Positions 9,949 through 43,566 of a stretch of 64,000 nt of DNA are shown piece by piece. Within the stretch, counting starts at the first letter, position 1. Each line of letters opens with the position of its first letter. The position numbers and the translations under genes were made by a program. The notes under the pieces were generated by a model. That model searched no databases and was not told where the DNA came from. It saw nothing but the letters and a program-made list of their open reading frames with translations. The DNA lies in the IMG/VR virus record IMGVR_UViG_3300029720_000418, positions 3,344 through 67,343 of that record. The stretch is one strand, 5' to 3'. This DNA comes from a virus.

Positions 9949-12900
9949 ATGGCTGATTTTTATAGAATAGCTTATCAGAATAAGCAAGGCATGATAGAAA
10001 TATTTCCTAAATTCATTATTGGGAATAGCTCCGATCTTATGATACGAGGTGGCGATTTTTATGCTGTATGGTTGGAAGACAAAGGTCTGTGGTCTACTGA
10101 TGAGCAAGACGTCATTCGAATGATCGACAGAGATCTGGATAAGTATGTCACAGATAATAGTCCAAGGTTCGATACGAACACAAAGATTAAATATATGTGG
10201 GATGCAGAATCTGGATCGATTGACCGATGGCATAAGTATTGTCAGAAACAACAAAGGGACTCATTTCACATGTTGGATGAAAAACTTATATTTTCCAATA
10301 GTGAGACAAACAAGAAAGATTATGCCAGCAAACGATTGAATTATCCATTGGAACCTGGTAAATGTCCAGCTTATGAGAAGATTATATCAACGATATATTC
10401 GGAGGAAGAAAGACATAAGATTGAATGGGCAATCGGGTCTATTGTTACCGGCGATTCCAAGACAATACAGAAATTTCTTGTATTGTATGGCGCTGCTGGT
10501 ACAGGTAAATCAACCATCTTGAACATTATCCAACAGTTATTTGAGGGTTACTATTCGGTATTTGATGCGAAGGCATTGGGGTCGAGTAGTAACTCTTTTG
10601 CGTTAGAGGCATTTAAGTCGAACCCGCTGATTGCAATTCAGCATGATGGAGATCTGTCTAAGATCGAAGATAATACGAGATTAAATAGTCTTGTATCTCA
10701 TGAGATGATGACTGTGAATGAGAAATTCAAGTCAACCTATGCCAGCCAGTTTAAGTGTTTTCTATTCATGGGTACAAACAAGCCAGTACGGATCACAGAT
10801 GCAAAATCAGGTCTTATACGAAGATTGATTGATGTGTCACCTTCCGGAAAGAAAGTTAGCCCTAAAGAATACAACACTTTAATGGAGCAGGTTAAGTTTG
10901 AGCTTGGTGCTATTGCTTGTCATTGCAGAGATGTATATTTGGAAGATCCTGGGTATTATGACACATATCTTCCAATGTCAATGATGAGTGCATCAAATGA
11001 TTTCTACAACTTCATTATTGATTCGTTTCATGTATTCAAAAAAGAAGACGGAACAACGTTAAAGGCAGCATGGGAAATGTACAAAACATATTGTGATGAG
11101 GCAAAAGTTCCATATCCATTTTCTCAGAGAAGTTTTAAAGAAGAGCTTAAAAACTATTTTTGGGATTTTGACGAGGAGATTGATGAGGATGGATCTAAGA
11201 TAAGAAACATTTATCACGGATTTCGAACCGAGAAATTTGAGACTTTTAGTCACAGAAAAAGAGAGGAAAAAAATGTGACTAACTCAGAATCTTGGCTGCA
11301 ATTCATGAATGCTGCAGAAACAACAAAGAGCTTTGATATGGAATGTGAATCATGCCCAGCTCAATATGCAACGGACAAAGAAACCCCAAGTAAATCTTGG
11401 AACCGAGTCACAACCACACTCAAAGACATCGATCCATCGAAACTTCATTATGTCAAGGTTCCAGAGAATCACATAGTTATTGACTTTGATTTGAAGGGCG
11501 ATGACGGCAAAAAATCGTTTGAAAAGAATTTGGAGGCTGCTGCGAAGTGGCCACCTACGTATGCGGAGCTTAGTAAAAGTGAGGCAGGGATCCATCTTCA
11601 TTATATTTATAATGGGGATGTATCAAAATTAAGTCGTATATACGATGAAAACATTGAAATAAAGGTTTTTACAGGTAAGAGTTCTCTTAGACGAAAACTT
11701 ACCAAGTGCAATAATTTATCTGTTGCGATGATAAGCTCCGGACTACCTATGAAAGGAGAAAAGATGATAGATAAAAATATTGTACAATCTGAGAAAGGTC
11801 TCAGAACAACAATTAAAAAATGTCTTAATAAAGAAGTCCACGCTGGTACAAAATCCAATGTGGACTTTATTTATAAGATTTTGGATGATGCTTACAATGG
11901 CGGTCTTCATTATGATGTATCAGACATGAAGAATGAGGTATTAGCATTTGCTGCTAACAGTACCAATCAGGCACCATATTGTATCAAGCTGGCGAGTAAG
12001 ATGAAATTCAAGTCAGAAGAGATATCAGACGGCAAAGCGGATGAAAATGCACCATCGATATTTTATGATATTGAGGTATTTCCGAACTTATTCTTGGTCA
12101 ATTGGAAAATCCAGGGAGAAGGAAACCCCGTAGTTCGAATGATCAATCCAAGTCCAAAAGACATCGAGGATCTGATCAAATACAATCTTGTAGGGTTCAA
12201 CTGTCGAAGATATGATAACCATCTCATCTATGCAAGACTTATGGGATATACGAATGAGGAACTATATAACTTGTCTCAGAAAATTATATCTGGAGATAGA
12301 AATGCGTTCTTTGGGGAAGCTTACAATTTGTCTTATACAGATGTGTATGACTTTGCATCCGCTGGAAACAAAAAGAGCTTGAAGAAGCTTGAAATTGAGA
12401 TGTCGAACAAAGCAAATGACCCTACATCAAAAATGGATGATGGTCTTAGAAAGATGCTCAAGAACATTAAGCATCAGGAGTTGGGTCTGCCTTGGGACCA
12501 GCCGGTTCCGAAAGAATTATGGACCAAAGTTGCAGAGTATTGTGATAATGATGTCATTTCGACCGAGGCAGCATTCTTATATTTGTCTGCGGATTGGACA
12601 GCTAGACAGATTCTGGCGGACTTAGCGGGTATGACTGTAAATGACACGACAAACACTCTTACAACCAGAATTATATTTGGTCGGGAGAAAAATCCACAGA
12701 GTCAGTTCAATTACAGAGATTTGGCAGAACCGGTCACAGAAATGACATTGGAGATGCAGGAATTTTTAAAAGAAGCTTGTCCAGAAATGATAGCTGAACC
12801 ACATGGTGAAGCAAAAAGCATGTTACCTTATTTTCCAGGGTATAAGTACGAAGCCGGTAAATCAACATATCGAGGAGAGGTTGTTGGCGAAGGCGGATAT

Positions 12901-14106
12901 GTATATTCTGAACCAGGTATGTACGGAAACGTAGCATTACTTGATATTGCATCTATGCATCCTCATAGTGCTATCGCAGAGGTATTGTTTGGTGTTAAAT
13001 TTACACAGGCATTTAGAGATATTGTTGAGGGTCGTGTAAGTATCAAACATCAGGCTTGGGATGAGGTAAATCACATGCTTGATGGTAAACTTACGCCTTA
13101 TATTCAGAAAGTCATTGATGGTGAAATGACAGCTAAGCAGCTTGCAAATGCATTGAAGACTGCAATCAACTCTGTATACGGATTAACTTCAGCAAGCTTC
13201 AGCAATGCGTTTAGAGATCCGCGTAATAAGGACAATATTGTAGCTAAACGTGGTGCTTTATTCATGATTGACTTGAAGAATGAGGTGCAGGCAAGAGGAT
13301 TTACAGTTGCTCATATCAAGACGGACTCAATCAAGATTCCAGACGCAACGCCAGAAATCATACAGTTCGTTATGGATTTCGGTAAAAGATATGGTTATAC
13401 ATTTGAGCATGAGGCTACGTATGACAGAATGTGCCTCGTAAATGATGCAGTTTATATCGCAAAGTACAAAGACGCAGAATCATGTCAGGCTATGTATGGT
13501 TATGCGCCAGGAGATAATGCAGATCATGGTAGAGATTGGACTGCAACAGGTAAGCAGTTCGCCGTACCATATTTATTCAAGACATTGTTTAGTCATGAAG
13601 ATATTGAGTTCAACGATATGTGTGAGACGTTTGCAGTGTCTAAGGGTGATTTATATTTAGATATGAATGAGAACTTGCCTGACGTGGCTAAGTACGAAAT
13701 TGAATTAGAGAAGCTTGAGGAACAGTACAAGAAAGGTAAAATCTCGGATGTTATATTTGAATCCGAATCAGCGGGTCTTCCGGAAAAGATCGCAGAAGGA
13801 CATGAAATGCAGTTTGTAGGGAGAGTTGGTCAGTTCTGTCCGATTATGTCTGGAAACAATGGCGGAATTTTATACCGTGTCTGCGATGGTAAGAATTATG
13901 CTGCACCAGGATCGAGTGGATATCGATGGTTGGAATCTGAGACAGTGAAGAGATTAGGTTTGACTGATAACATTGATCGCTCATTCTATGATGCATTAGT
14001 AAACGATGCAGTAGATAGTATATCACAGTATGGAGATTTTGAGTGGTTTGTATCCGACGATCCATATGTAATGAATTTGGACACGTCGAGAATCCCATTC
14101 AAATAA
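9949..14106 (+). CDS. fused replicase: SF3/D5-like P-loop NTPase + AEP primase-polymerase + family-B DNA polymerase
   Basis: Walker A LYGAAGTGKST at ~10478-10516. AEP motifs IVIDFDLKGDDG and SEAGIHLHYIY at ~11469-11612. PolB Exo I FYDIEVFPN at ~12061, Exo II FNCRRYDNH, Exo III YCDNDV. Motif A LLDIASMHPHS at ~12940, motif B KTAINSVYG at ~13158, motif C IKTDS at ~13316. Confidence 0.8.
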   Translation: MADFYRIAYQNKQGMIEIFPKFIIGNSSDLMIRGGDFYAVWLEDKGLWSTDEQDVIRMIDRDLDKYVTDNSPRFDTNTKIKYMWDAESGSIDRWHKYCQKQQRDSFHMLDEKLIFSNSETNKKDYASKRLNYPLEPGKCPAYEKIISTIYSEEERHKIEWAIGSIVTGDSKTIQKFLVLYGAAGTGKSTILNIIQQLFEGYYSVFDAKALGSSSNSFALEAFKSNPLIAIQHDGDLSKIEDNTRLNSLVSHEMMTVNEKFKSTYASQFKCFLFMGTNKPVRITDAKSGLIRRLIDVSPSGKKVSPKEYNTLMEQVKFELGAIACHCRDVYLEDPGYYDTYLPMSMMSASNDFYNFIIDSFHVFKKEDGTTLKAAWEMYKTYCDEAKVPYPFSQRSFKEELKNYFWDFDEEIDEDGSKIRNIYHGFRTEKFETFSHRKREEKNVTNSESWLQFMNAAETTKSFDMECESCPAQYATDKETPSKSWNRVTTTLKDIDPSKLHYVKVPENHIVIDFDLKGDDGKKSFEKNLEAAAKWPPTYAELSKSEAGIHLHYIYNGDVSKLSRIYDENIEIKVFTGKSSLRRKLTKCNNLSVAMISSGLPMKGEKMIDKNIVQSEKGLRTTIKKCLNKEVHAGTKSNVDFIYKILDDAYNGGLHYDVSDMKNEVLAFAANSTNQAPYCIKLASKMKFKSEEISDGKADENAPSIFYDIEVFPNLFLVNWKIQGEGNPVVRMINPSPKDIEDLIKYNLVGFNCRRYDNHLIYARLMGYTNEELYNLSQKIISGDRNAFFGEAYNLSYTDVYDFASAGNKKSLKKLEIEMSNKANDPTSKMDDGLRKMLKNIKHQELGLPWDQPVPKELWTKVAEYCDNDVISTEAAFLYLSADWTARQILADLAGMTVNDTTNTLTTRIIFGREKNPQSQFNYRDLAEPVTEMTLEMQEFLKEACPEMIAEPHGEAKSMLPYFPGYKYEAGKSTYRGEVVGEGGYVYSEPGMYGNVALLDIASMHPHSAIAEVLFGVKFTQAFRDIVEGRVSIKHQAWDEVNHMLDGKLTPYIQKVIDGEMTAKQLANALKTAINSVYGLTSASFSNAFRDPRNKDNIVAKRGALFMIDLKNEVQARGFTVAHIKTDSIKIPDATPEIIQFVMDFGKRYGYTFEHEATYDRMCLVNDAVYIAKYKDAESCQAMYGYAPGDNADHGRDWTATGKQFAVPYLFKTLFSHEDIEFNDMCETFAVSKGDLYLDMNENLPDVAKYEIELEKLEEQYKKGKISDVIFESESAGLPEKIAEGHEMQFVGRVGQFCPIMSGNNGGILYRVCDGKNYAAPGSSGYRWLESETVKRLGLTDNIDRSFYDALVNDAVDSISQYGDFEWFVSDDPYVMNLDTSRIPFK

Positions 14107-15916: not shown

Positions 15917-16609
15917 ATGAAAAAAGAATTGATCTCTGGTGGGTGTATACTATGTGACGGTCTTACATCGGAAGAACTGATACAATCATTGGATAGACAC
16001 ATATTTCCACGAAAAAAAATTTATGATTTAAGCAAGCTTGAAGTCCATTTTGGCCGGGAATTATTTAATAGATTATGTAATGATGACATAATTAATTATG
16101 ACTCTATTAATCATTCATTTACAGTTACGGTATGTGAAATTCCTTGTCGTTTATCATACGAATGTCCATCTTATGGATATTGTGTATATTTGAAGCATGA
16201 TCACGAAGGCCAGATGGACTCGACGATAGGATTGTTTCAGGATGATATTAAAAGACAGCTTAATGCAGCATTTGGAAGATCGTCTGTACCTATTGATATA
16301 TCCGGAAGAATTAAAAAAGTTATCTTCAACCCACCTGCAACTATTATATTCTGGAAAGATAGTAGTAAAACAGTAGTGAAATGCGACGGCGAAGCTTTTG
16401 ATCCTGAGAAGGGAATGGCTATGGCAATCAGCCGCAAGGTGTTAGGTGATTCCTATGGATATTATAATATATTTGAAAAGTGGTGCAAGAAGTACAAGGA
16501 GCCGGGTAAAAGATCAGGCAAATATCCATGGGGAACAACTCCACAGGAAGTAGCGGCTAAGTATATGCCACTGCCTAATACAGAATCAGGTGATTCAGAT
16601 GCCGACTAA
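15917..16609 (+). CDS. hypothetical protein (230 aa)
   Basis: RBS GGAGGG. Cys-containing N-terminus. Confidence 0.55.
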   Translation: MKKELISGGCILCDGLTSEELIQSLDRHIFPRKKIYDLSKLEVHFGRELFNRLCNDDIINYDSINHSFTVTVCEIPCRLSYECPSYGYCVYLKHDHEGQMDSTIGLFQDDIKRQLNAAFGRSSVPIDISGRIKKVIFNPPATIIFWKDSSKTVVKCDGEAFDPEKGMAMAISRKVLGDSYGYYNIFEKWCKKYKEPGKRSGKYPWGTTPQEVAAKYMPLPNTESGDSDAD

Positions 16610-17846
16610 GCCGTTTCTGTACGATTATCAGATGGATGCTGTAAATCATATGTTCAATGGGTGCATTCTCAATGGTGGTGTTGGATCGGGAAAGAGTAGA
16701 ACCGGATTATATTACTACTTCAAAGAACAAGGCGGTAGTATAAATCCAGACTATAAACCGATGAAAAAACCAAAAGATTTATATATTATCACAACCGCTA
16801 TGAAACGGGACAAGCTTGAATGGGATGGAGAATTAGCAAACTTCTTATTGTCCAGAGACGCTAAGAAGAACACATTGAATGGCAACGTAAAAATCGTTGT
16901 TGATTCGTGGAACAGAGTAAAAAAATACATGGCTGTGGAAAATGCGTTCTTCATATTTGACGAACAAAGGGTTGTTGGATCGGGAACTTGGGTTAAGGCA
17001 TTTTTAAAGATAGCCAAAAACAATGATTGGATATTATTATCAGCAACAGCTGGCGATAAATGGCCTGATTATATTCCGGTATTTATAGCAAACGGTTTTT
17101 ATAAAAATCGATCTGAGTTTATTCGGGAACATATTGTATATTCTCGATATACAAAATATCCACAGATTGATAAGTATTTGAACGTCGGACGTCTAATTCG
17201 ATTAAGGAATAAAATTCTGATTGATATGGAATTTAAACGTCCAACGACAGCTCATCACAATGATATTTATGTAACATATGATGTCACTAAGTACAAATCG
17301 GTTGTAAAAAATAGATGGGATCCGTACAAAAATGAACCCATCCAGCAAGCATCAAGTCTTTGTTATATTCTGAGAAGAATAGTGAATGAAGACGAATCCA
17401 GAATAGTAGCTCTATTGGAGATTCTTGAGAAGACTCCTAGAGCTATTATTTTTTATAATTTTGATTACGAGCGAGAGATGCTATTACATGTTTTCAGCAA
17501 CCACGATGAAACAGATAAAGACTTTGAAGTAGCGGAATGGTCTGGACATGCCCACCAACCTGTGCCAGGAACAAAGCGATGGGTATATTTGGTGCAGTAC
17601 ACGGCTGGATGCGAAGGCTGGAATAGTATTAAGACAGACACGATTATATTCTACTCACAGAATTACAGTTATAAGGTTGTGACACAGGCTGCCGGTCGAA
17701 TTGATCGTCTGAATACGCCATTCAAAGATCTATATTATTATCATCTGAAAAGTCGAAGTGGAATTGACCTCGCCATTAGCAAAGCATTGAAGGAGAAGAA
17801 AAAGTTCAATGAAGCAAAGTGGTGTAAAAATTCATTCGCGAAATAA
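16599..17846 (+). CDS. SF2 (DEAD/DEAH-like) helicase
   Basis: Motif I GGVGSGKS, motif II FIFDEQR, motif III LSATAG, motif VI QAAGRIDR. The start could instead be the GTG at 16590. Confidence 0.7.
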   Translation: MPTKPFLYDYQMDAVNHMFNGCILNGGVGSGKSRTGLYYYFKEQGGSINPDYKPMKKPKDLYIITTAMKRDKLEWDGELANFLLSRDAKKNTLNGNVKIVVDSWNRVKKYMAVENAFFIFDEQRVVGSGTWVKAFLKIAKNNDWILLSATAGDKWPDYIPVFIANGFYKNRSEFIREHIVYSRYTKYPQIDKYLNVGRLIRLRNKILIDMEFKRPTTAHHNDIYVTYDVTKYKSVVKNRWDPYKNEPIQQASSLCYILRRIVNEDESRIVALLEILEKTPRAIIFYNFDYEREMLLHVFSNHDETDKDFEVAEWSGHAHQPVPGTKRWVYLVQYTAGCEGWNSIKTDTIIFYSQNYSYKVVTQAAGRIDRLNTPFKDLYYYHLKSRSGIDLAISKALKEKKKFNEAKWCKNSFAK

Positions 17847-21519: not shown

Positions 21520-21780
21520 ATGATTAAATTAAGAGATTTATTACAACAGTGTAGTTGCGATGTTTATATTTTTGGAAATGGTAACTGTCCATGCCCAGAA
21601 ATAAAACTTCCAAAACCGCTTGTGAAGGCGGAAAAATATTTGAATGCTGATATTTTGAATCAGGGTGTGCGGAATATATCCATATGTGATGGACATTTGC
21701 AGGTTTGGCTGGAAGATAAATCTATTCAAGACGTTGTTGATTCTAAGTTAAAAGAAATGGAGGATGAAAGTAATGAGTAA
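21520..21780 (+). CDS. hypothetical Cys-rich protein, paralog of 23488-23685
   Basis: Both proteins start MIKLxDLL and share a ...VWLE C-terminal motif. RBS AAGGAGG. Confidence 0.5.
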   Translation: MIKLRDLLQQCSCDVYIFGNGNCPCPEIKLPKPLVKAEKYLNADILNQGVRNISICDGHLQVWLEDKSIQDVVDSKLKEMEDESNE

Positions 21781-22510
21781 TATGTTAGATTGGGCTAAAA
21801 AGGAAGTTGAAATTGCATGTAAGAAAGAAAATCCAAACAGAAAAGATGGAGAGTTTGATTATGGATGTGCCTGTTACGAGAGCGCATTAAAAGCTTTTCA
21901 AAGCTTATGCGAAGATGATCATTCTGGTTTCAGTATTAGAATGACTCAGGCGATATTGAATCGGCTCATAAATGGTAAACCATTAACACCGATTGAGGAT
22001 ACCGACGAGGTATGGAGTGATATTTCTGATATGAGTGGTCTGAAGGGAGAAGAGCGTAACTATCAGTGCAAACGCATGTTTTCCTTATTTAAGTATGTAT
22101 ATGCTGACGGAACTGTCAAGTACAAGGATAATAACCATTCATACTGTGTCAGCATTCATAACTGCAATGATACATATTCTTTTGTAATGGTTGAAAGAAT
22201 TATTGACGAGATGTTTCCTATAACAATGCCGTATATGCCAGGAAAACCAATCGAAGTTTATTGCGAAGATTTCTTAACAGATAAAAAGAACGGCGATTTT
22301 GATACTGTCGGAGTGTTCTATGCGCTGAAAACAGAGGATGGTAAACAGGAGAAGATTGAGATTAACAGATTCTTCAGAGAACCAGAAGGCGATGAAGAGG
22401 GTAACTGGACTGAGATATCTAAGGAAGAATATTACGAGAGGAAGGAGAGACAGATAACTGCTGCTGATATTTCAAGAGAGATTAAAGAAGCAATGGAGGA
22501 TGAGAAGTAA
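21773..22510 (+). CDS. hypothetical protein (~245 aa)
   Basis: ATG 8 nt after GGAGGA. The alternative start 21764 is in the same frame. Confidence 0.55.
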   Translation: MSNMLDWAKKEVEIACKKENPNRKDGEFDYGCACYESALKAFQSLCEDDHSGFSIRMTQAILNRLINGKPLTPIEDTDEVWSDISDMSGLKGEERNYQCKRMFSLFKYVYADGTVKYKDNNHSYCVSIHNCNDTYSFVMVERIIDEMFPITMPYMPGKPIEVYCEDFLTDKKNGDFDTVGVFYALKTEDGKQEKIEINRFFREPEGDEEGNWTEISKEEYYERKERQITAADISREIKEAMEDEK

Positions 22511-22603
22511 ATGTAATTGAAGCTATATAGAGTCATAACTCGAGTTCATTTTAATGAGTGGATTCGAGTTATTTTTATGCATAGTCAAGAAAGGAGATAA
22601 ACC

Positions 22604-23446
22604 ATGAAAAAATATGAATTAACAAATGAAACAATCGAATATAAAGGAAAAAAATTATATAGAATTAAGGCTCTAATTGATTTTGGAAATGTAGAAAAAG
22701 GAGCTCGTGGTGGGTTCGTTGAAAAAGAGGAAAATCTTAGTATGTCTGGTAATGCTTGGGTATGTGATAATGCTCGGGTATGTGATAATGCTCGGGTATG
22801 TGGAGATGCTAATGTGTGTGGTGATGCTTTTGTGTCTGATAATGCTCAGGTGTCTGGTGATGCTTTTGTGTGTGGTAATGCTTGGGTATGTGATAATGCT
22901 CGGGTATGTGGAGATGCTAATGTGTGTGGTAATGCTTGGGTATGTGATAATGCTCAGGTGTCTGGTGATGCTCGGGTGTCTGGTAATGCTCAGGTGTCTG
23001 GTGATGCTCGGGTATGTGATAATGCTCGGGTATGTGATAATGCTCGGGTATGTGGAGATGCTAATGTGTGTGGTGATGCTTTTGTGTCTGATAATGCTCA
23101 GGTGTCTGGTGATGCTTTTGTGTGTGGTAATGCTTGGGTATGTGGTGGTGCTAATGTGTGTGGAGATGCTAATGTGTGTGGTGATGCTAATGTGTGTGGT
23201 GATGCTCAGGTGGATAAGAGCATCAATTATGCCGTGATCAAAGGTTTCGGCACTTGTTATAGATCTACGACATTTTTCAGATGTCAAGACAAAACAGTAA
23301 AAGTATCCTGCGGATGTTTTTTAGGAACCATCGACGAATTCAGAAATCAAGTAAAAAACACGCGTGGAGGAAAAATTGCAAAAGAATATTTAATGATTGC
23401 TGATCTAATGGAAATACATTTTTCGGAGGATGGATACGATGGTTAA
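22604..23446 (+). CDS. Cys-rich hexapeptide-repeat (left-handed beta-helix-like) protein with a globular C-terminal domain
   Basis: About 27 consecutive hexads of [GDN][DN]A[RWFNQ]V[CS], encoded by 18-bp tandem DNA repeats at 22744-23215. RBS AAAGGAG. Confidence 0.6.
   Translation: MKKYELTNETIEYKGKKLYRIKALIDFGNVEKGARGGFVEKEENLSMSGNAWVCDNARVCDNARVCGDANVCGDAFVSDNAQVSGDAFVCGNAWVCDNARVCGDANVCGNAWVCDNAQVSGDARVSGNAQVSGDARVCDNARVCDNARVCGDANVCGDAFVSDNAQVSGDAFVCGNAWVCGGANVCGDANVCGDANVCGDAQVDKSINYAVIKGFGTCYRSTTFFRCQDKTVKVSCGCFLGTIDEFRNQVKNTRGGKIAKEYLMIADLMEIHFSEDGYDG
22744..23215 (+). repeat. 18-bp tandem repeat array (~27 units) encoding the hexapeptide repeats
   Basis: The unit GG(T/A)(G/A)ATGCTNNNGT(G/A)T(G/C)T recurs. 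A ~140-bp higher-order block (22743-22890) is duplicated at ~23020-23150. Confidence 0.7.
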
Positions 23447-23687: not shown

Positions 23688-23963
23688 ATGATTAAATTGG
23701 AAAACGTGGTTCTGGCGAGTCCGGAGCAGATGGATTTTATTATTGAAGGTATGCGGAATCCTATGAATTCGTGGGATAGGAGTGATAGTTATATTGATGC
23801 GCCCAATAAAAATTGTAATGGTCAATCTGGAGATTCTTTCCATGTGTTAGGAGACAACGATCACGACTTGATGCAGCGCTTGGCAGATGCTGGATCGGTT
23901 CATAGAAAGTATATGCGGATGATGCCGGTATATGTGAGAATCACAGCACCTTTATATTGGTAG
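23688..23963 (+). CDS. ThyX-like (flavin-dependent thymidylate synthase family) N-terminal fragment
   Basis: Follows the ThyX N-terminal pattern up to ...VRITAPLYW (compare VKAPIFVARQW). It then hits a stop. The RHR/SxRY core is not present in this ORF. Confidence 0.45.
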   Translation: MIKLENVVLASPEQMDFIIEGMRNPMNSWDRSDSYIDAPNKNCNGQSGDSFHVLGDNDHDLMQRLADAGSVHRKYMRMMPVYVRITAPLYW

Positions 23964-24066
23964 TTCTTTCTGCCAATGAAACACTTTTCCTAGTTATCGC
24001 TAGGGGTCACATTTTGTGGCTAACGGGGAACCACCCATTGGAATCCCGTGGGAAACATTTCAAATA

Positions 24067-24094
24067 TTCGCGAAATTTACAAGGTGTATTATGA
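24067..24094 (+). promoter_or_regulatory. conserved promoter-like motif copy inside the ThyX interruption
   Basis: TTCGCGAAATTTACAAGGTGTATTATGA. Confidence 0.5.
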
Positions 24095-24284
24095 GAGAAT
24101 AGACACTCGAAAGGGCAGTGAAGTTTGAGGATCCAAGCATCATTGGAAACTAATCGGGAAGGAGATAATAGTGAAAACTATGCACGAGGCTAGATCGAAA
24201 GATGAACTATATTGAAAGATATACCATGAGCCTGAGGGAAATATCGGCGTCCTTCGAGTGGAATTGATGTATTCTCTTTTCTTT

Positions 24285-24312
24285 TTCGCGAAAATTACAT
24301 CTCCTATTATGA
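24285..24312 (+). promoter_or_regulatory. conserved promoter-like motif copy inside the ThyX interruption
   Basis: TTCGCGAAAATTACATCTCCTATTATGA. Confidence 0.5.
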
Positions 24313-24326
24313 AAGGAGTGATATTT

Positions 24327-24515
24327 ATGGCAAAAGAATATATTGTTAAAGCGACTAAGTACGGAAGAGACTGGAAAAAAATAGGAGAGGGTATTGATTT
24401 TCTAGAAGATAATAAAAAATATCGACTAGAATTTCATGCTACTGGATTAATCCAGGCTATCCGAGTAAAAATAGCGTTTAAACAAAATAAACGGTTTAAA
24501 TATTACACTTATTGA
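24327..24515 (+). CDS. small protein (62 aa) within the ThyX interruption
   Basis: Has its own promoter copy (24285-24312), RBS AAAGGAGTG and a downstream terminator at ~24520-24560. Confidence 0.4.
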   Translation: MAKEYIVKATKYGRDWKKIGEGIDFLEDNKKYRLEFHATGLIQAIRVKIAFKQNKRFKYYTY

Positions 24516-24756
24516 AAGAGGGACTCAGCAATAACGCTGGGTCTTTTCTCTTTTATATTTTGCGACGAATATCAAAATGAACCTGTAGAGGCTATCCCCT
24601 ATGCCTTCTGGGCGGGGGAGTAGGGCTACTATTGATACGTAGCTGGGTTTTAGGAAACGAAGCCCATGAAAACCGAAATGGTGTCCTATTGTTTATATTA
24701 TTGTGTGTGAAAAATTATGGTGGATTTATATTTTATAGAAAGAGAGGTGATATAGA

Positions 24757-25197
24757 ATGACAGAAAATTATTTAAGTCATCATGGAGTAAAAGGACAGAA
24801 GTGGGGTGTTAGAAAAGAAATATATAATTCGTCAAGTAGATCTCGCAAAAGAGAGATAAGAAAGGAATACTATAAGACCCCAGAAGGACAAATTAAAAAG
24901 GCAACTACTAAAGCTACAATGTTAGGTGGCCCATTGGCTGGTATTATTGCCGGACAAATAACTTTAAGAAAAGTTAGAAGAAAAATAGACGCTACAAAAA
25001 ATAATAAATTGTCATCTGTCGATAAAGACACTATAGAAAAAGGAAAGAAAAAAGTAGAAGCTCTTCCAAATAACCGCAAGATAGAAACAGATGAGCAAAA
25101 GATAAAACGTCTTATGTCAGAAGGGAAAATAAATCCGAAAGCTAATCATATATTTGACCAAAATGGGAATTTGATGATGGTTTACTGGGATGATTAA
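24757..25197 (+). CDS. lysine-rich basic protein, HHGVxGxKWGVR family member 1
   Basis: N-terminal LSHHGVKGQKWGVRK. Paralogs at 35712-36347 and 38137-38676. RBS GAGAGGTGA. Confidence 0.6.
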   Translation: MTENYLSHHGVKGQKWGVRKEIYNSSSRSRKREIRKEYYKTPEGQIKKATTKATMLGGPLAGIIAGQITLRKVRRKIDATKNNKLSSVDKDTIEKGKKKVEALPNNRKIETDEQKIKRLMSEGKINPKANHIFDQNGNLMMVYWDD

Positions 25198-25296
25198 TTA
25201 TGATAAGCACACAAAAACAATAGTAAAAGATAGTCCATTAATGGGAAAGAATTTGATACATATAAGGTAGGTACTGTCGCAAACTCTTGCAGTACG

Positions 25297-25734
25297 ATGC
25301 ACAAGATTGCTGAGAAAGAATTTACGCTGGAAGATTTTAGCTGTGAGCATTTGATTTCAGACTGGATCGGAGATAATAACGATGCTATCTGGTATAAAGA
25401 CCCGCCTAAAAATGGATCGATTGAATGCCCGATAATATTTTCTCCTCTGGATGCTTTAAGAACCACTATTGGAGTATTAAATACGAACCGAGAAGCTTAT
25501 CTTAAAACAAAAGACAAAAAGTTCTGGTGGCAGATGATTCAGCTTCTTCCGAGTAGTTATAACCAGACACGTAATGTCATGATGAATTATGAGGTGCTGG
25601 CAAATATTTATCGGTGGAGAAAAGATCATAAGCTGGACGAATGGCGAGAGTTTTGTAAGTGGATCGAGGGCTTGCCATATGGTGAGCTGATTACTGGATT
25701 ACCTATTGAATCCGATGATGCAGACGAAGATTAA
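25297..25734 (+). CDS. ThyX-like C-terminal fragment
   Basis: LLPSSYNQTRNVMMNYEVLANIYRWRKDHKLDEW aligns with the ThyX segment LPxxxxTxxxxxxNxRxLxNFxxLRxDxHAQxEI. The open frame extends upstream to 25234. Confidence 0.45.
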   Translation: MHKIAEKEFTLEDFSCEHLISDWIGDNNDAIWYKDPPKNGSIECPIIFSPLDALRTTIGVLNTNREAYLKTKDKKFWWQMIQLLPSSYNQTRNVMMNYEVLANIYRWRKDHKLDEWREFCKWIEGLPYGELITGLPIESDDADED

Positions 25735-25981: not shown

Positions 25982-26521
25982 ATGGCAGAATTAAATCCTA
26001 AAACAGATGCGACAAAGAAAGTCATACATTTAATGGTTACACCATTATGTAATAGAAATTGTAGGTATTGTTGTAATAAACAATATGATATAAATGATAT
26101 TTCTTATGTTACCGATGAGGAATTAAGAGAAGCTGAGGTTCTTTGCTTAACGGGCGGGGAACCTTTTTTGTTTACGGATCCATGTTGGATCGCCCGGCAT
26201 TACAAAAGGAGATATTCAAACATAAAAAAAGTATATGTATATACTAATGCCAAAGAATTATATCTTTGGTTAGCGGGTTACAATCTCATACATAATATTG
26301 ACGGCTTGAATGTCTCTATTAAAAACAAAGATGATTTATATTTCTTCAAAGAACTTGTTCACAATTATCAAAATCAAATTTGTGTTGATAATTGCATGAG
26401 TAATCGAGTTTATATTTTTGATAGTTTGATTCCCGATGACCTTGGAATATTTGAACCAATTATTCGGGAATGGCAGGAAGATTTTAAACCAGCGCCTGAT
26501 AGTATATTTAGAAGATTATAA
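25982..26521 (+). CDS. radical SAM enzyme (small, QueE/NrdG-like size class)
   Basis: CxxxCxxC (CNRNCRYC) near the N-terminus. Glycine-rich LTGGEPFL SAM-binding motif. RBS GGAGGAAT. Confidence 0.65.
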   Translation: MAELNPKTDATKKVIHLMVTPLCNRNCRYCCNKQYDINDISYVTDEELREAEVLCLTGGEPFLFTDPCWIARHYKRRYSNIKKVYVYTNAKELYLWLAGYNLIHNIDGLNVSIKNKDDLYFFKELVHNYQNQICVDNCMSNRVYIFDSLIPDDLGIFEPIIREWQEDFKPAPDSIFRRL

Positions 26522-31012: not shown

Positions 31013-33988
31013 TTGAATCCTATTGCAGAAGAAATTGAATCATATCATGGATGTGGCTCGATGACAACGACTGAATTCCTTGAGCATTATGGAATGCCTA
31101 GAAGATCGGGCAGATATCCATGGGGTTCTGGTGGAGATCCATATCAGCATGAGAGAGACTTCCTTAGTCGAGTTGAAGAATTAAAAGCAACTGGCTGGAC
31201 AGAAACTCCGGAGAATATTAAAGAGACATTCGGATTGACGACAACACAGTATCGTACAGAGAAAGCTCTGGCTAAAGATGAACGAAGAATGTATGACGTA
31301 GCAAGAGCAAAGTCACTCAGAGATGATGGTCTTGGAGCAACAGAGATTGGACGTAAGATGGGTATCAATGAATCGACAGTCAGATCATTACTTAATCCAC
31401 ATTCTGAACAGCGTATGGAGCAGGCGAGAAACACTGCAAAATATTTGAAAGAACAAGTGGATAAGAAAGAAATGGTTGAGGTTGGTACAGGTGTAGAGCG
31501 AGAGCTGAATATTTCAAAGGAGAAATTAGATCAAGCTCTCTATCTGTTGCAGAGAGATGGATATAACGTTTACAAAGGTGGAATACCACAGGCAACCAAC
31601 CCAGGGCAGCAGACAAATCAGAGAGTATTATGTAAGCCTGGAATTGAGCATAAAGAAATATATGATTTCAATAGAGTACAGTCCTTGAAAGATTACATTT
31701 CGAGAGATGGCGGTGATACTTTTGAAAAGAAGTTCCATTATCCAGAGAGCATGGATTCAAGGCGATTGGCTATCCGTTACAAAGAAGATGGGGGAATCGA
31801 CAAGGATGGAGTAGTAGAGCTTCGTCCTGGTGTTGCTGACTTATCGCTTGGCGAATCTCGTTATTCTCAGGTTCGTATTATGGTTGACGGTAAGAAATAC
31901 ATAAAGGGTATGGCTGTTTATGGAGATCCAAAAGATTTTCCCGATGGTGTTGACGCTATCTTCAATACAAACAAATCTAAGTCAGTAGCAAAGATGGATG
32001 TGTTGAAAGACATCAAGAATGATCCAGACAATCCTTTTGGTTCACTCATCAAAGATGCTGATCAAGGAGGTCAGTATTGGTATGATGATCCAAAGACTGG
32101 TAAAAAGAAACTTGGATTAATCAATAAAAGATCCGATGAGGGTGATTGGACTGAATGGAAAGACACGTTACCATCTCAGTTTTTAGCAAAGCAGTCATTG
32201 AGAATGGCGGGTAAACAGCTGGATTTAGCCAAGGCAGACAGAAGAGATGAGTTTGAAGAGATTAAATCTATCACGAACCCTGTGATTAAAAAACATTTCT
32301 TAGAAAAATTTGCTGATAGTTGTGATTCAGCATCAGTTCATTTGAAAGCAGCAGCGTTACCGGGGCAGAAATACCATGTAATACTTCCTATCAATTCTTT
32401 AAAGGAGAACGAAGTGTATGCTCCTGGATATACGCCAGGAACTAAGTTAGCATTGATTCGTTATCCGCATGGTGGAACATTTGAAATTCCAATACTTACT
32501 GTTACTGATAAAAATCCAGAAGGTAGAAGAATAATCGGAACCGAATCTATTGATGCAGTCGGTATTAATCACACGGTTGCTGAGCGTTTATCAGGAGCCG
32601 ATTTTGATGGTGATACTGTTATGTGTATCCCAACACACGACAAAGCAGGAAGGGTTAAGATCGCCTCAACGCCTCCATTAAAAGGTCTTGAGGGATTTGA
32701 TCCAAAAATGTCATACCCAGAACGTCCTGGTATGAAATATATGAAAGACCCAAAGACTGGTAAAGACAATACTCAGAATGAAATGGGGAGAATTTCAAAC
32801 CTTATCAGTGATATGACCTTAGCAGGAGCACCACCAGAAGAAATGGCTAGAGCAGTAAGACATTCTATGGTAGTTATTGATGCTGGAAAACATAAGTTGG
32901 ACTACAAGCAAAGTGAGATTGATAACAACATTAAAGCATTGAGGAAAGAATATCAGGTTAAGACAGATAAGGATGGAAACATTACTGGCTATGGTGGTGC
33001 CGCTACTATCATTTCAAGAAGTAAGGGCGAATCTACAATAAACAAACGCCAAGGTACGCCCAAGATTAATCTTAAGGGTAAAGAATGGTATGACCCAAGC
33101 AGACCTGAAGGTGCACTTATCTATAAAGATGCAGATAACCTATACTACCCAGATCGTAAGCAAGAAAAAGGTATCGTGGAGTTACGTACCGTGGATGGTA
33201 AAAAAGTAACCTACTCCTATGCCGATAAGGATGCGGTAGATAGGTATGCCCCAGTAGAGAGGAGAGACCCTGCTACCGGAAAAGTCACATTCACTAATAA
33301 AGATGGAAGCATAGAGTATCGAACCAAGGTTCATACACAGAAGAGTACCAATATGGCTGATACTGATGATGCATACACTCTAGTATCAAAGGCTAGACAC
33401 CCTATGGAACTTCTATATGCCGATTATGCCAATGATATGAAAGCATTAGCGAATCAGGCACGTGTTGAACTAGCTAATACAAGTAAGGTGGCATATAACC
33501 GAAATGCCAACACAATGTATAAAGCAGAGGTTAAGTCGTTGGATGAGAAACTTAATAATGCATTATTAAATGCTCCTAGAGAGCGTGCCGCGCAACGAAT
33601 GGCTAATGCTGAAGTACAAAAGAAACAATTGGACAATCCTGATTGGAAGTCTGCTGATGTTAAGAAAGCGAGTCAGCAAGCATTAACAAAGTTTCGACAA
33701 GAAGTTGGCTCTGTCTCGAGAAGAGCTCGAAACATACAGATTACAGACAATGAATGGAAAGCTATTCAAGCTGGAGCAATCAGTGAAAGTAAATTAAAGA
33801 AGATTCTTAATAATGCAGACATTGATGAATTGAGACAACGTGCCACACCAAGACAGACAAAAGCTATGACCGAATCTCAAATCAATCGTGCAAAAGCAAT
33901 GTCTTCTTCGAACTTCACATTAAAACAGATCGCAGATGCTTTAGGTGTCTCAACATCAACAGTTTCAAAGTATTTGAAAGGAGCGTGA
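31013..33988 (+). CDS. single-subunit RNA polymerase with beta-prime-type double-psi beta-barrel (YonO/crAss-vRNAP-like), flanked by HTH domains
   Basis: LALIRYPHGGTFEIPIL at ~32455-32500 matches the beta-prime NRAPTLHRLGIQAFEPVL region. GADFDGDTVMCIP at 32594-32632 matches NADFDGDQMAVHVP. Sigma-region-4-like HTHs lie at the N-terminus (~31300-31390) and the extreme C-terminus (~33900-33985). Confidence 0.6.
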   Translation: MNPIAEEIESYHGCGSMTTTEFLEHYGMPRRSGRYPWGSGGDPYQHERDFLSRVEELKATGWTETPENIKETFGLTTTQYRTEKALAKDERRMYDVARAKSLRDDGLGATEIGRKMGINESTVRSLLNPHSEQRMEQARNTAKYLKEQVDKKEMVEVGTGVERELNISKEKLDQALYLLQRDGYNVYKGGIPQATNPGQQTNQRVLCKPGIEHKEIYDFNRVQSLKDYISRDGGDTFEKKFHYPESMDSRRLAIRYKEDGGIDKDGVVELRPGVADLSLGESRYSQVRIMVDGKKYIKGMAVYGDPKDFPDGVDAIFNTNKSKSVAKMDVLKDIKNDPDNPFGSLIKDADQGGQYWYDDPKTGKKKLGLINKRSDEGDWTEWKDTLPSQFLAKQSLRMAGKQLDLAKADRRDEFEEIKSITNPVIKKHFLEKFADSCDSASVHLKAAALPGQKYHVILPINSLKENEVYAPGYTPGTKLALIRYPHGGTFEIPILTVTDKNPEGRRIIGTESIDAVGINHTVAERLSGADFDGDTVMCIPTHDKAGRVKIASTPPLKGLEGFDPKMSYPERPGMKYMKDPKTGKDNTQNEMGRISNLISDMTLAGAPPEEMARAVRHSMVVIDAGKHKLDYKQSEIDNNIKALRKEYQVKTDKDGNITGYGGAATIISRSKGESTINKRQGTPKINLKGKEWYDPSRPEGALIYKDADNLYYPDRKQEKGIVELRTVDGKKVTYSYADKDAVDRYAPVERRDPATGKVTFTNKDGSIEYRTKVHTQKSTNMADTDDAYTLVSKARHPMELLYADYANDMKALANQARVELANTSKVAYNRNANTMYKAEVKSLDEKLNNALLNAPRERAAQRMANAEVQKKQLDNPDWKSADVKKASQQALTKFRQEVGSVSRRARNIQITDNEWKAIQAGAISESKLKKILNNADIDELRQRATPRQTKAMTESQINRAKAMSSSNFTLKQIADALGVSTSTVSKYLKGA

Positions 33989-36359: not shown

Positions 36360-38123
36360 ATGGCATTATCGAACACCGCCACCCCACGATACTACGGCGA
36401 GTTTCGAGATGCCGTACTTCGAGGCGAAATCCCGGTAAATGAAAAAATCGAGATGGAAATGAATCGAATAGACGCGTTGATACAGAATCCTGGCGTCTAC
36501 TACGATGATAAGGCAATAGATGGGTTTATTGCTTATTGTGAAAAAGAATTGGTTCTAACAAATGGCGATGATCTACATTTATTGGATTCATTTAAACTGT
36601 GGGCTGAGCAGATTTTTGGATGGTATTATTTTGTAGAGAGAAGTGTATATGTGCCATCAAAAGATGGACACGGGGGGCACTATGCGAGAAAACGAATTAA
36701 GAAGCGGCTTATAAATAAGCAGTATTTAATAGTTGCAAGAGGTGCAGCAAAATCTATGTATGCTTCCTGCATTCAAAACTATTTCTTGAATGTCGATACA
36801 TCCACAACACATCAGGTCACAACAGCTCCAACAATGCCACAAGCGGAAGAGGTTATGTCACCGATCAAGACAGCCATAACCAGAGCGAGAGGGCCGCTAT
36901 ATCAATTTCTTACTTATGGGTCATTGCAGAATACGACTGGTTCAAAAGCTGACCGAGTAAAGCTTGCCAGCACGAAGAAGGGGATTCAGAATTTCTTGAC
37001 CGGATCATTATTGGAAGTAAGACCAATGTCGATTGACAAGCTTCAGGGTTTACGTGTAAAGATAGCTACTGTGGATGAATGGTTATCAGGAGATGTCCGG
37101 GAAGATGTAATTGGTGCGTTGGAGCAGGGTGCCGCTAAGGAACAGGGCGGAGGAATGAATGACGACTACCTTATTGTAGCGATTTCCTCCGAAGGAACTG
37201 TCCGTAATGGTTCAGGAGATACAATCAAAATGGAATTGATGAGTATATTAAAAGGCGAGTACAATGCTCCGCATACATCGATATGGTGGTATGCTCTTGA
37301 TTCTGTCGATGAAGTATCAGATCCGGATTTATGGATAAAAGCAAATCCAAACCTTGGAAAAACTGTAAGTTATGAAACGTATCAGCTGGATGTCGAGAGA
37401 GCCGAAAAGAATCCGGCAGTTCGGAATGATATTTTGGCAAAGAGATTCGGTATACCCATGGAGGGTTATACATATTACTTCACATATGAAGAAACTCTTC
37501 CGCATAGAAAGAAAGAGTATTGGCAAATGCCATGTTCAATGGGAGCAGATCTTTCTCAGGGCGATGATTTCTGTTCTTTCGCATTTCTATTTCCATTATC
37601 TAATGGAGAATTCGGCGTAAAAACAAGAAACTACATAACCGAGCTTACTTTAAATAAGCTGCCTTCGGCTATGAGAATTAAATATGAAGAATTTATGAAT
37701 GAAGGAAGTCTTATTGTCATGGATGGAAACATTCTCGATATGATGCAGGTATTCGACGATTTGGACGAATACATCCTGTCTATTGGCTACGATGTTCGGT
37801 GTTTTGGATATGATCCATACAATGCTAAAGAATTTGTGGAAAGATGGGCAAGAGAAAATGGTCCATTTGGCATTGAGAAAGTAATACAGGGAACAAAGAC
37901 CGAGTCAGTCCCATTAGGTGAATTAAAGAAGTTATCAGAAGAGAGAATGCTACTGTTCGATGAGAAGCTTATGACCTTTGCGATGGGAAACTGTATTGTC
38001 ATGGAGGATACGAATGGAAACCGTAAGCTTCTGAAGAAACGACATGATGCGAAGATCGATGCTGTAGCGGCTATGATGGATGCCTTTGTCGCATTCAAAC
38101 TGAATCGAGAAGCATTTGAATAA
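36360..38123 (+). CDS. terL: terminase large subunit
   Basis: N-terminal ATPase (VARGAAKS P-loop-like, DEW) and C-terminal RNaseH-like nuclease (KRHDAKIDAVAAMMDAF). Length and position are typical. Confidence 0.8.
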   Translation: MALSNTATPRYYGEFRDAVLRGEIPVNEKIEMEMNRIDALIQNPGVYYDDKAIDGFIAYCEKELVLTNGDDLHLLDSFKLWAEQIFGWYYFVERSVYVPSKDGHGGHYARKRIKKRLINKQYLIVARGAAKSMYASCIQNYFLNVDTSTTHQVTTAPTMPQAEEVMSPIKTAITRARGPLYQFLTYGSLQNTTGSKADRVKLASTKKGIQNFLTGSLLEVRPMSIDKLQGLRVKIATVDEWLSGDVREDVIGALEQGAAKEQGGGMNDDYLIVAISSEGTVRNGSGDTIKMELMSILKGEYNAPHTSIWWYALDSVDEVSDPDLWIKANPNLGKTVSYETYQLDVERAEKNPAVRNDILAKRFGIPMEGYTYYFTYEETLPHRKKEYWQMPCSMGADLSQGDDFCSFAFLFPLSNGEFGVKTRNYITELTLNKLPSAMRIKYEEFMNEGSLIVMDGNILDMMQVFDDLDEYILSIGYDVRCFGYDPYNAKEFVERWARENGPFGIEKVIQGTKTESVPLGELKKLSEERMLLFDEKLMTFAMGNCIVMEDTNGNRKLLKKRHDAKIDAVAAMMDAFVAFKLNREAFE

Positions 38124-42774: not shown

Positions 42775-43566
42775 ATGTCTAAGATTAAATGGGATGAAAC
42801 CGGAGAGCGTTTATTTGAAACTGGTGTGGAAAATGGAGCGTTGTTTGTACAGGACAATAGCGGAACTTATGAAAAAGGTGTGTCTTGGAATGGACTTACG
42901 AACGTAAGTGAGAGTCCGGAAGGTGGAGAAGTCACAACGTTGTATGCAGACGATGTAGCATACTTGGATCTTATCTCAGTAGAGAAGTACAAGTACACAA
43001 TCGAAGCATATGCTTCACCTGTTGAGTTTGATGCTTGTGATGGAACAACAAGTATTGCTAAGGGTGTTACGATTGGCCAGCAGTCTCGTAAGAAGTTTGG
43101 ATTCGCATACAAGTCACGTATCGGAAATGATATTGAAGGCTCCGATTTCGGATACAAGCTGCATATTGTGTATAACAGCTTGGCTTCTCCATCTGAGCGG
43201 TCACATGCATCCATTAATGATAGCCCAGAGGCAGAGACGTTGTCTTGGTCAGCTAGTTCGACAGCAGTAAATGTTGCCGGTCATAAGCCAACATCTACAG
43301 TAGTGATTAATAGCACAACAGCAGATCCTGCTAAGCTGGCTATTCTTGAGAATATTCTGTACGGAAAGGATAATGAGCTTACCAAGACTGAGCCTAAGAA
43401 CTGGTCAACAGATTACAAGAAGTATTATACAAAGTCTGGAGATAAGTTCGAAGCAGTTACTGGTGAATCTGCACCGACTTGGGAAGAGAACAAGTATTAC
43501 GACGAGGCGACAGAACCGAGATTACCACTCCCTGATGAGATCATGGAAATCATGGGACAGGAGTAG
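42775..43566 (+). CDS. major tail protein
   Basis: N-terminal KWDETGERLFETGVENGALF...WNGLTNVSESPEGGEVTTLYADDVAY is typical of siphovirus tail-tube proteins. Strong RBS and terminators on both sides, consistent with a highly expressed gene. Confidence 0.55.
   Translation: MSKIKWDETGERLFETGVENGALFVQDNSGTYEKGVSWNGLTNVSESPEGGEVTTLYADDVAYLDLISVEKYKYTIEAYASPVEFDACDGTTSIAKGVTIGQQSRKKFGFAYKSRIGNDIEGSDFGYKLHIVYNSLASPSERSHASINDSPEAETLSWSASSTAVNVAGHKPTSTVVINSTTADPAKLAILENILYGKDNELTKTEPKNWSTDYKKYYTKSGDKFEAVTGESAPTWEENKYYDEATEPRLPLPDEIMEIMGQE

Follow-up and report, generated by a model that had tools for sequence, protein, structure and literature searches.

A long, cysteine-rich member of a large YdcK-like phage solenoid family whose hexapeptide array varies in length between related phages

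The open reading frame studied here is a genuine gene of a gut phage. Its product is a new, unusually long and cysteine-rich allele of an already catalogued and very large protein family, in which a solenoid of the type described by the Pfam family PF18836 precedes a C-terminal domain with a C-G-C-F motif (CGCF domain). We are highly confident of this identity and of the anatomy of the protein as a YdcK-type solenoid joined to a CGCF domain. The number of repeats differs between near-identical phages while the end domains remain fixed, an observation that is supported. Taken as a whole, our best explanation is that of a family gene encoding a length-variable rod with conserved ends, which would act as an early scaffold or adaptor; we put it forward tentatively, giving it a little less than an even chance. 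The features discussed below are listed in Table 1, with coordinates referring to the window, i.e., the whole stretch of 64,000 nucleotides of viral DNA that was analyzed.

Table 1. Position of the repeat gene, its parts and its upstream surroundings in the window
Feature	Position	Strand	Basis
Upstream neighbour, 248-aa Tad3-family protein (Type I Thoeris inhibitor family)	21764..22510	+	PF25185, E=3.3e-32; PHROG 24386, E=3.7e-100
Terminator-like hairpin between the Tad3-like and repeat genes, 17-bp stem followed by a T run	22535..22572	+	Pattern scan; -25 kcal/mol, z=-3.8
Ribosome-binding site AAGGAG, 7 nt 5' of the ATG	22591..22596	+	Read from sequence
Repeat gene, coding for the 280-aa YdcK-like beta-solenoid protein (with stop codon)	22604..23446	+	ORF list, PF18836, PHROG 7964/5070
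N-terminal cap (aa 1-46) made of two beta-hairpin strands and a GGxVExxxNLS motif, in common with YdcK	22604..22741	+	
Array of 26 x 18-bp units encoding 26 hexads, aa 47-202, beta-helix rod	22742..23209	+	Tandem Repeats Finder, unit map, per-position variability
Perfect 135-bp higher-order repeat, copy 1	22758..22892	+	Exact match extension
Perfect 135-bp higher-order repeat, copy 2; missing in the 18-unit allele of contigs L001 and L064	23010..23144	+	Match extension, unit comparison
C-terminal domain (aa 203-280), with four strands followed by two helices	23210..23443	+	

The gene runs from an ATG to a TAA codon in the list of open reading frames. Two other frames overlap it, one on the minus strand (22673-23287) and one on the plus strand (22707-23237), and are putative by-products of the 18-bp repeat being read in other frames. 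The hexad pattern of the product is far beyond chance. The original prediction of about 27 repeats covering some 160 residues was essentially right: the 26 hexads follow one another without interruption in the form V-[C/S]-[G/D]-[D/N/G]-A-x. Eighteen of them begin with V-C and seven with V-S, and the first one begins with M-S, which brings the hexads with Ser at position 2 to eight. Tandem Repeats Finder gave a period of 18 bp with 26.1 copies at 22743-23212 (score 359), and nested periods of 36 and 108 bp within the array. Only 14 distinct 18-bp units are used, in the order HAABDEFCABCIGJGAABDEFCKLMN. The higher-order duplication that had been announced was also recovered, as a perfect repeat of seven and a half units with an offset of 252 bp between its two copies.

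The comparison of the units indicates where change is allowed. The amino acids at position 1 (Val, or Met in the first unit) and position 5 (Ala) are constant, and the variation is concentrated in codons 2, 3, 4, and 6; the last of these, at the most variable position of the hexad, varies at all three nucleotide positions and the other three mainly at one each. In a beta-helix, Val and Ala would pack in the core and position 6 would face the solvent. We read this variability as that of a putative beta-helix, in which the core is fixed and the surface is free to change, rather than that of a DNA-level element. Iterons or a replication origin inside the gene were considered because the units are 18 bp long and replication genes lie nearby. 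We rejected them as the primary reading, given that the variation between units follows the logic of the protein and that the hexads are kept across phyla despite diverged DNA.

Family alignments reveal the same three-part build throughout, with an N-cap, a hexad array, and a C-domain. The N-cap spans 46-54 aa with the motif [YF]-x-[LMI]…[YFH]-[RQK]-I-x-[AS]…GG-x-V/I-E-x-x-x-N-L, the array has the consensus V-[YSCF]-G-[ND]-A-[RWKEQ], and the C-domain of about 75 aa follows the pattern GFG..R.TTFF…V.CGCF.GT..EFR..V..T…A.EYL..ADL.E.HF. in which C236, G237, C238, and F239 are invariant (encoded at 23309-23320). In our protein this domain amounts to 78 non-repetitive residues with 4 Cys, in agreement with the Cys-containing C-terminal domain that had been predicted. 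It corresponds to no Pfam family and has no significant match among solved structures. A profile made from this domain alone matched 2,588 cluster representatives when searched against 1.84 billion proteins. In these matches the domain is nearly always C-terminal, and hexads precede it wherever the match is complete. Four proteins (P0146, P0170, P0176, and P0210) have the CGCF domain after an HTH or Bro-N DNA-binding domain, which replaces the N-cap or is added to it; these rare proteins could be true fusions, or else assembly or frameshift artefacts.

The structure prediction that had been proposed as a check was informative for part of the protein. AlphaFold2 modelled the two ends of the full-length protein with pLDDT values of 81-95 and the repeats with values below 45, which we attribute to the gappy alignment in that region. 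In contrast to these repeats, a 160-aa orthologue with 6 hexads was modelled at a pLDDT of 83.9. The full-length model of the repeats being unusable, the geometry of the rod was taken from this short orthologue and from YdcK. The N-cap and the beta-helix superpose on the structure of YdcK (PDB 2F9C), and YdcK, not a bactofilin, is the solved structure that matches. A beta-helix of hexads rises by roughly 4.8 Å per 18-residue coil, so that 26 hexads would make about 8.7 coils and a rod of roughly 4 nm. A beta-helix-like fibre with a ladder of Cys residues had been foreseen; the beta-helical rod stands, but for an object of this length the word fibre is too strong, and the Cys ladder belongs to this allele only.

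This last point follows from the composition of hexad position 2, which across the family is Y in 33% of the cases, S in 26%, C in 15%, and F in 10%, as compared with a Cys share of 69% in the window protein. We thus discarded the idea of a conserved Cys ladder or metal solenoid. The invariant C-G-C of the C-domain may nonetheless bind a metal. A column of Cys along a beta-helix is also found in the insect antifreeze protein TmAFP, which has 12-residue repeats and disulfides and is secreted. The window protein differs from it in being cytoplasmic and in the lack of conservation of the Cys position, and disulfides are not expected in the ladder because of the cytoplasmic location. We found neither a signal peptide nor a membrane segment in the protein (maximal Kyte-Doolittle hydropathy of 0.9 over 19 residues), and its N-terminus is hydrophilic (mean hydropathy of -0.76). 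Judging from its sequence, the product is expected to be a soluble, cytoplasmic protein. The absence of these signals led us to reject a secreted or surface fibre, and it makes the receptor-masking or superinfection-exclusion fibre suggested in the original prediction unlikely.

The assignment to the family is given by several profile searches. PF18836 (B_solenoid_ydck) matched nine stretches of the protein with 79 bits, relative to a cutoff of 30 (E=6.6e-23). Two PHROG families, both labelled 'unknown function', gave very strong matches: PHROG 7964 (E=1.9e-92, best stretch aa 90-275) and PHROG 5070 (E=1.5e-89, best stretch aa 2-147). Members of these two families, such as Sfi19 orf229 and phiRM10 gp34, have the same architecture over their full length and 44-57% identity to the window protein, which has the most hexads seen (26, where the median over the best 120 matches is 16). 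The relation to YdcK itself, known from Salmonella and E. coli (PDB 2F9C and 2PIG), is more distant. The N-cap is shared, but the score against the YdcK equivalog NF040481 is 79.1 bits for a curated cutoff of 350, with only aa 3-104 aligned, and the window protein is not a YdcK orthologue. YdcK is a chromosomal protein of roughly 326 aa with irregular coils and is not known to carry the CGCF domain.

The family is large and broadly distributed. We searched 5.8 billion proteins and scored 8,000 candidates, 7,821 of which had E values up to 1e-5, so that the family has at least this number of homologues. The best 120 matches are 154-404 aa long, most have PF18836, and their source names are only generic, e.g., 'isoleucine patch superfamily'. 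Using tblastn, we found full-length relatives in GenBank phages of very different hosts, including Ruminococcus gnavus phiRM10 (gp34, 56% identity), Streptococcus phage Sfi19 (orf229) and many Javan prophages, as well as phages of Bacteroides, Xanthomonas, Mycobacterium, Bacillus, and Liberibacter. Representative bacterial genomes added Clostridia, Bacilli, Fusobacteria, and Bartonella, with no close relatives among them, and a megablast search of the region against GenBank phages returned no match. Two to six paralogues of the hexad family, at times adjacent, were seen in five of the viral loci (L019, L020, L029, L031, and L035), in Lactobacillus phage LfeInf and in Bacillus phage KLEB27-3. 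None of the PADLOC defence models matched the protein at E values up to 0.01. Literature searches on YdcK and the family names, hexapeptide repeats, Tad3, bactofilin, and Sfi19 orf229 returned no functional study of the family.

The generic names carried by these homologues raise the question of whether the protein is an enzyme, either a left-handed beta-helix acyltransferase or a carbonic-anhydrase-like protein. Homologues in phage records and at JGI are called 'putative acyltransferase' or 'isoleucine patch superfamily', there is weak similarity to models of LpxA, LpxD, GlmU, and PaaY (E from 1e-8 to 0.08), and the acyltransferases LpxA, LpxD, and GlmU are likewise built on hexapeptides whose first residue is aliphatic and whose fifth is small. 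We nevertheless regard this possibility as highly improbable. The Pfam model Hexapep (PF00132) reaches 13.3 bits for a cutoff of 27, and all enzyme-family NCBIfam models score far below their curated cutoffs. The rod is made of perfect repeats that no loop interrupts, it lacks a conserved catalytic residue, and it varies between 5 and 26 hexads in near-identical phages with no constraint to whole turns, which is hard to fit with a fixed active site.

Other homologues are named 'polymer-forming cytoskeletal protein' by NCBI, and the Pfam Bactofilin model (PF04519) gave 31 bits, marginally above its cutoff of 27.9. Bactofilins have a beta-helical core and a repetitive hydrophobic pattern, like the rod described here. 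A self-polymerising filament of this kind might organise the replication of phage DNA or disturb host division. However, the Bactofilin match overlaps the much stronger one to PF18836, and the match among solved structures is YdcK. Bactofilins polymerise via the uncapped ends of their helices, whereas conserved globular domains cap both ends of the rod in this family. A bactofilin-like filament therefore appears improbable to us.

The original prediction had proposed that the number of repeats varies among related phages, and this was borne out. Nineteen contigs of the same lineage, mostly from human-gut metagenome or viral-contig assemblies, have between 5 and 20 hexads, with identical N-caps (except for one that has diverged) and near-identical C-domains. 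The counts are 5, 6, 14, 15, 15, 17 (six contigs), 18 (two), 19, and 20, to be compared with 26 in the window. They include six IMG/VR contigs (L001-L004, L011, and L024) with the same gene order and flanks that are mostly 83-98% identical in DNA. The first five of these have 18, 17, 17, 17, and 6 hexads, respectively, an identical N-cap, and C-domains that are 97-100% identical; the sixth, L024, ends inside the array with 100% identity. Exact-pattern scans added eight human-gut metagenome contigs. Two further alleles, with 19 and 15 hexads, occur on contigs that are 445 kb and 199 kb long, which makes a prophage state probable for this phage.

The unit strings form a nested series, from HAABDEFCABCIGJGKLN to HAABDEFCIGJGKLN, then HABDEFCIGJGKLN, and finally HIGKLN or HAABN. 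The window array corresponds to the 18-unit allele with AABDEFC present twice and one further unit added. This nested pattern suggests that length changes may arise by unequal recombination or replication slippage. In 131 of the 152 proteins compared across the family, the distance from the N-terminal motif to the CGCF motif belongs to a single class modulo 6, and modulo 18 these proteins are split over three classes (42/52/37). We conclude that the unit of change is one hexad and that the number of complete coils is unconstrained, and we reject a whole-turn constraint on the length of the rod. As in the tandem repeats of contingency loci, the length changes by whole DNA repeat units; the resemblance does not extend to phase-variable switching, which is not evidenced for the window gene.

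All these alleles come from metagenome or viral-contig assemblies, which we assume to be made of short reads, and the unit count of the window could be that of a chimeric path through strain variants. The 26-unit array would then be an expansion produced by the assembly and the true gene would be shorter, e.g., with 18 units. The perfect 135-bp repeat is about as long as a short read, no other contig examined has the 26-unit allele, which is the longest we saw, and a related contig (L024) breaks within the array. On the other hand, the junctions G-A, C-K, and L-M-N are missing in the 18-unit allele, and reads carrying them must exist. Some unit strings are also identical in contigs that were assembled separately (L001 and L064, L003 and L062, L004 and L063), which argues against random misassembly. 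We consider an artefact of this kind unlikely, and the gene and the family-wide variation in length stand even if the count is wrong.

The position of the gene in the phage genome is also informative. All open reading frames of at least 150 aa in the window are on the plus strand, once those overlapping a longer plus-strand frame are excluded. The replication module includes a primase/helicase-type protein with DUF5906 (9949-14106), a helicase (16590-17846), and a single-stranded DNA-binding protein. The large terminase gene is at 36360-38123 and, given its size and position, a frame of 2,313 aa probably encodes the tape-measure protein. The repeat gene is among small open reading frames between the replication and packaging modules. 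We found no promoter-like site before it in a pattern scan. The Tad3-family gene just upstream is also present upstream of the repeat gene in L002-L004, L024, L040, and L041, and absent in L001, L011, and unrelated phages. More generally, no neighbour is conserved beyond the lineage among 37 viral loci.

What is conserved outside the lineage is the type of location. Unrelated prophages have an integrase and a CI-like repressor on one strand. On the opposite strand come a Cro-like gene, in some cases with a Bro-N antirepressor after it, then small open reading frames, the family gene, and more small frames. These are followed by recombination genes (ERF, Gp157, SSB, or Gam) and finally by a primase and a helicase. 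This arrangement was found in phiRM10 and in three unrelated prophages, and in part at the locus of Liberibacter phage SC1. Such a stereotyped slot is that of an early lytic operon and is not typical of a moron expressed in lysogeny, which renders doubtful the 'moron-like' region in which the gene had been placed. The suggestion of a diversity-generating locus did not hold either. We rejected a diversity-generating retroelement, as the window has no template repeat for the array (no match of 16 nt or more outside it) and no reverse-transcriptase motif; the only [YF]xDD in reading frames of at least 250 aa belongs to a frame of 271 aa at 42943, within the structural region.

Some of the neighbouring genes have peculiarities of their own. 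The downstream gene (23688-25734, PHROG 6721) is intact in relatives, where it encodes 252-262 aa, and is split here, with residues 1-91 encoded at 23688-23960 and residues 93-257, in another frame, at 25246-25731. The inserted DNA, of about 1.28 kb, has two open reading frames, one at 24258-24515 and the other, whose N-terminus has a DUF7211 motif, at 24757-25197. Two pieces of the insert (24016-24067 and 24575-24715) are 94-98% identical in the diverged contigs L025 and L036, as against only 75-80% for the segments of the gene. The insert has the appearance of a mobile intron or insertion, yet searches with Rfam identified no group I or group II intron in it, even at E values up to 1. The gene at 25982-26521 (179 aa), also present in the relative L040, has a sub-threshold radical-SAM match (Pfam, 25.5 bits versus 29.5) and a weak match to the PADLOC model pVip (prokaryotic viperin, E=9.6e-7). 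For the protein of 991 aa encoded at 31013-33988, the domain matches are limited to short segments of HTH and sigma-70 region 4, found near residue 105 and at the very C-terminus. Its gene, which shortly precedes the packaging genes, is kept in L040 and L041, and the protein may be a late-gene regulator.

How the protein works can be approached from the contrast between its parts. The rod would be a non-catalytic element, either a spacer that tolerates changes in length or a scaffold for oligomerisation, and the function would reside in the conserved end domains. We propose that the protein is made early in lytic growth and acts on a partner from the host or the phage, as an accessory factor of host takeover or anti-defence. 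We see this scaffold or adaptor mechanism as possible rather than likely. Anti-defence or host takeover is our best guess because of the Tad3-family neighbour and the position of the gene. Against anti-defence stand the absence of this neighbour from L001, L011, and unrelated phages and the lack of a PADLOC match for the protein.

The acidity of the array invites another interpretation, in which the rod has the width of DNA and mimics a nucleic acid, in the manner of Qnr and MfpA, so as to titrate a DNA-targeting enzyme or a defence system of the host. These pentapeptide-repeat proteins are also regular beta-helices of short perfect repeats and are possible functional analogues, and pentapeptide proteins of BFVD gave weak fold matches (E around 3e-4). 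The array has a pI of 4.05, with 20 Asp and Glu versus 7 Lys and Arg, and 79% of the arrays of the family are net negative. In phiRM10 the family gene is two genes upstream of a Gam-like gene, and the tolerance of any length would fit with a decoy. Yet, the net charge averages only -0.26 per hexad and the remaining 21% of the arrays are neutral or basic, so the charge of such arrays is not consistently DNA-like, and both the length of the repeat and the geometry of the helix differ from those of Qnr and MfpA. The G-[N/D]-A residues of the turns are probably structural rather than exposed, and mimicry leaves unexplained the strict conservation of both end domains. We give this interpretation little credence, and retain the scaffold or adaptor as the working explanation.

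These results place the gene in a family that is among the commoner uncharacterised accessory proteins of temperate phages, with at least 7,821 clusters at 90% identity, a C-domain matched by 2,588 clusters at 50%, and a range that covers phages of Firmicutes, Proteobacteria, Bacteroidetes, and Actinobacteria with a conserved slot in the early operon. To what was already catalogued, this work adds a clean series of lengths and the description of the CGCF domain as one that is new to Pfam and to the solved structures. The natural series from 5 to 26 hexads with fixed ends provides a ready-made experiment on the length of the rod, and the adjacency of a Tad3-family gene gives a concrete and testable hypothesis on the role that these proteins may have in their phages.
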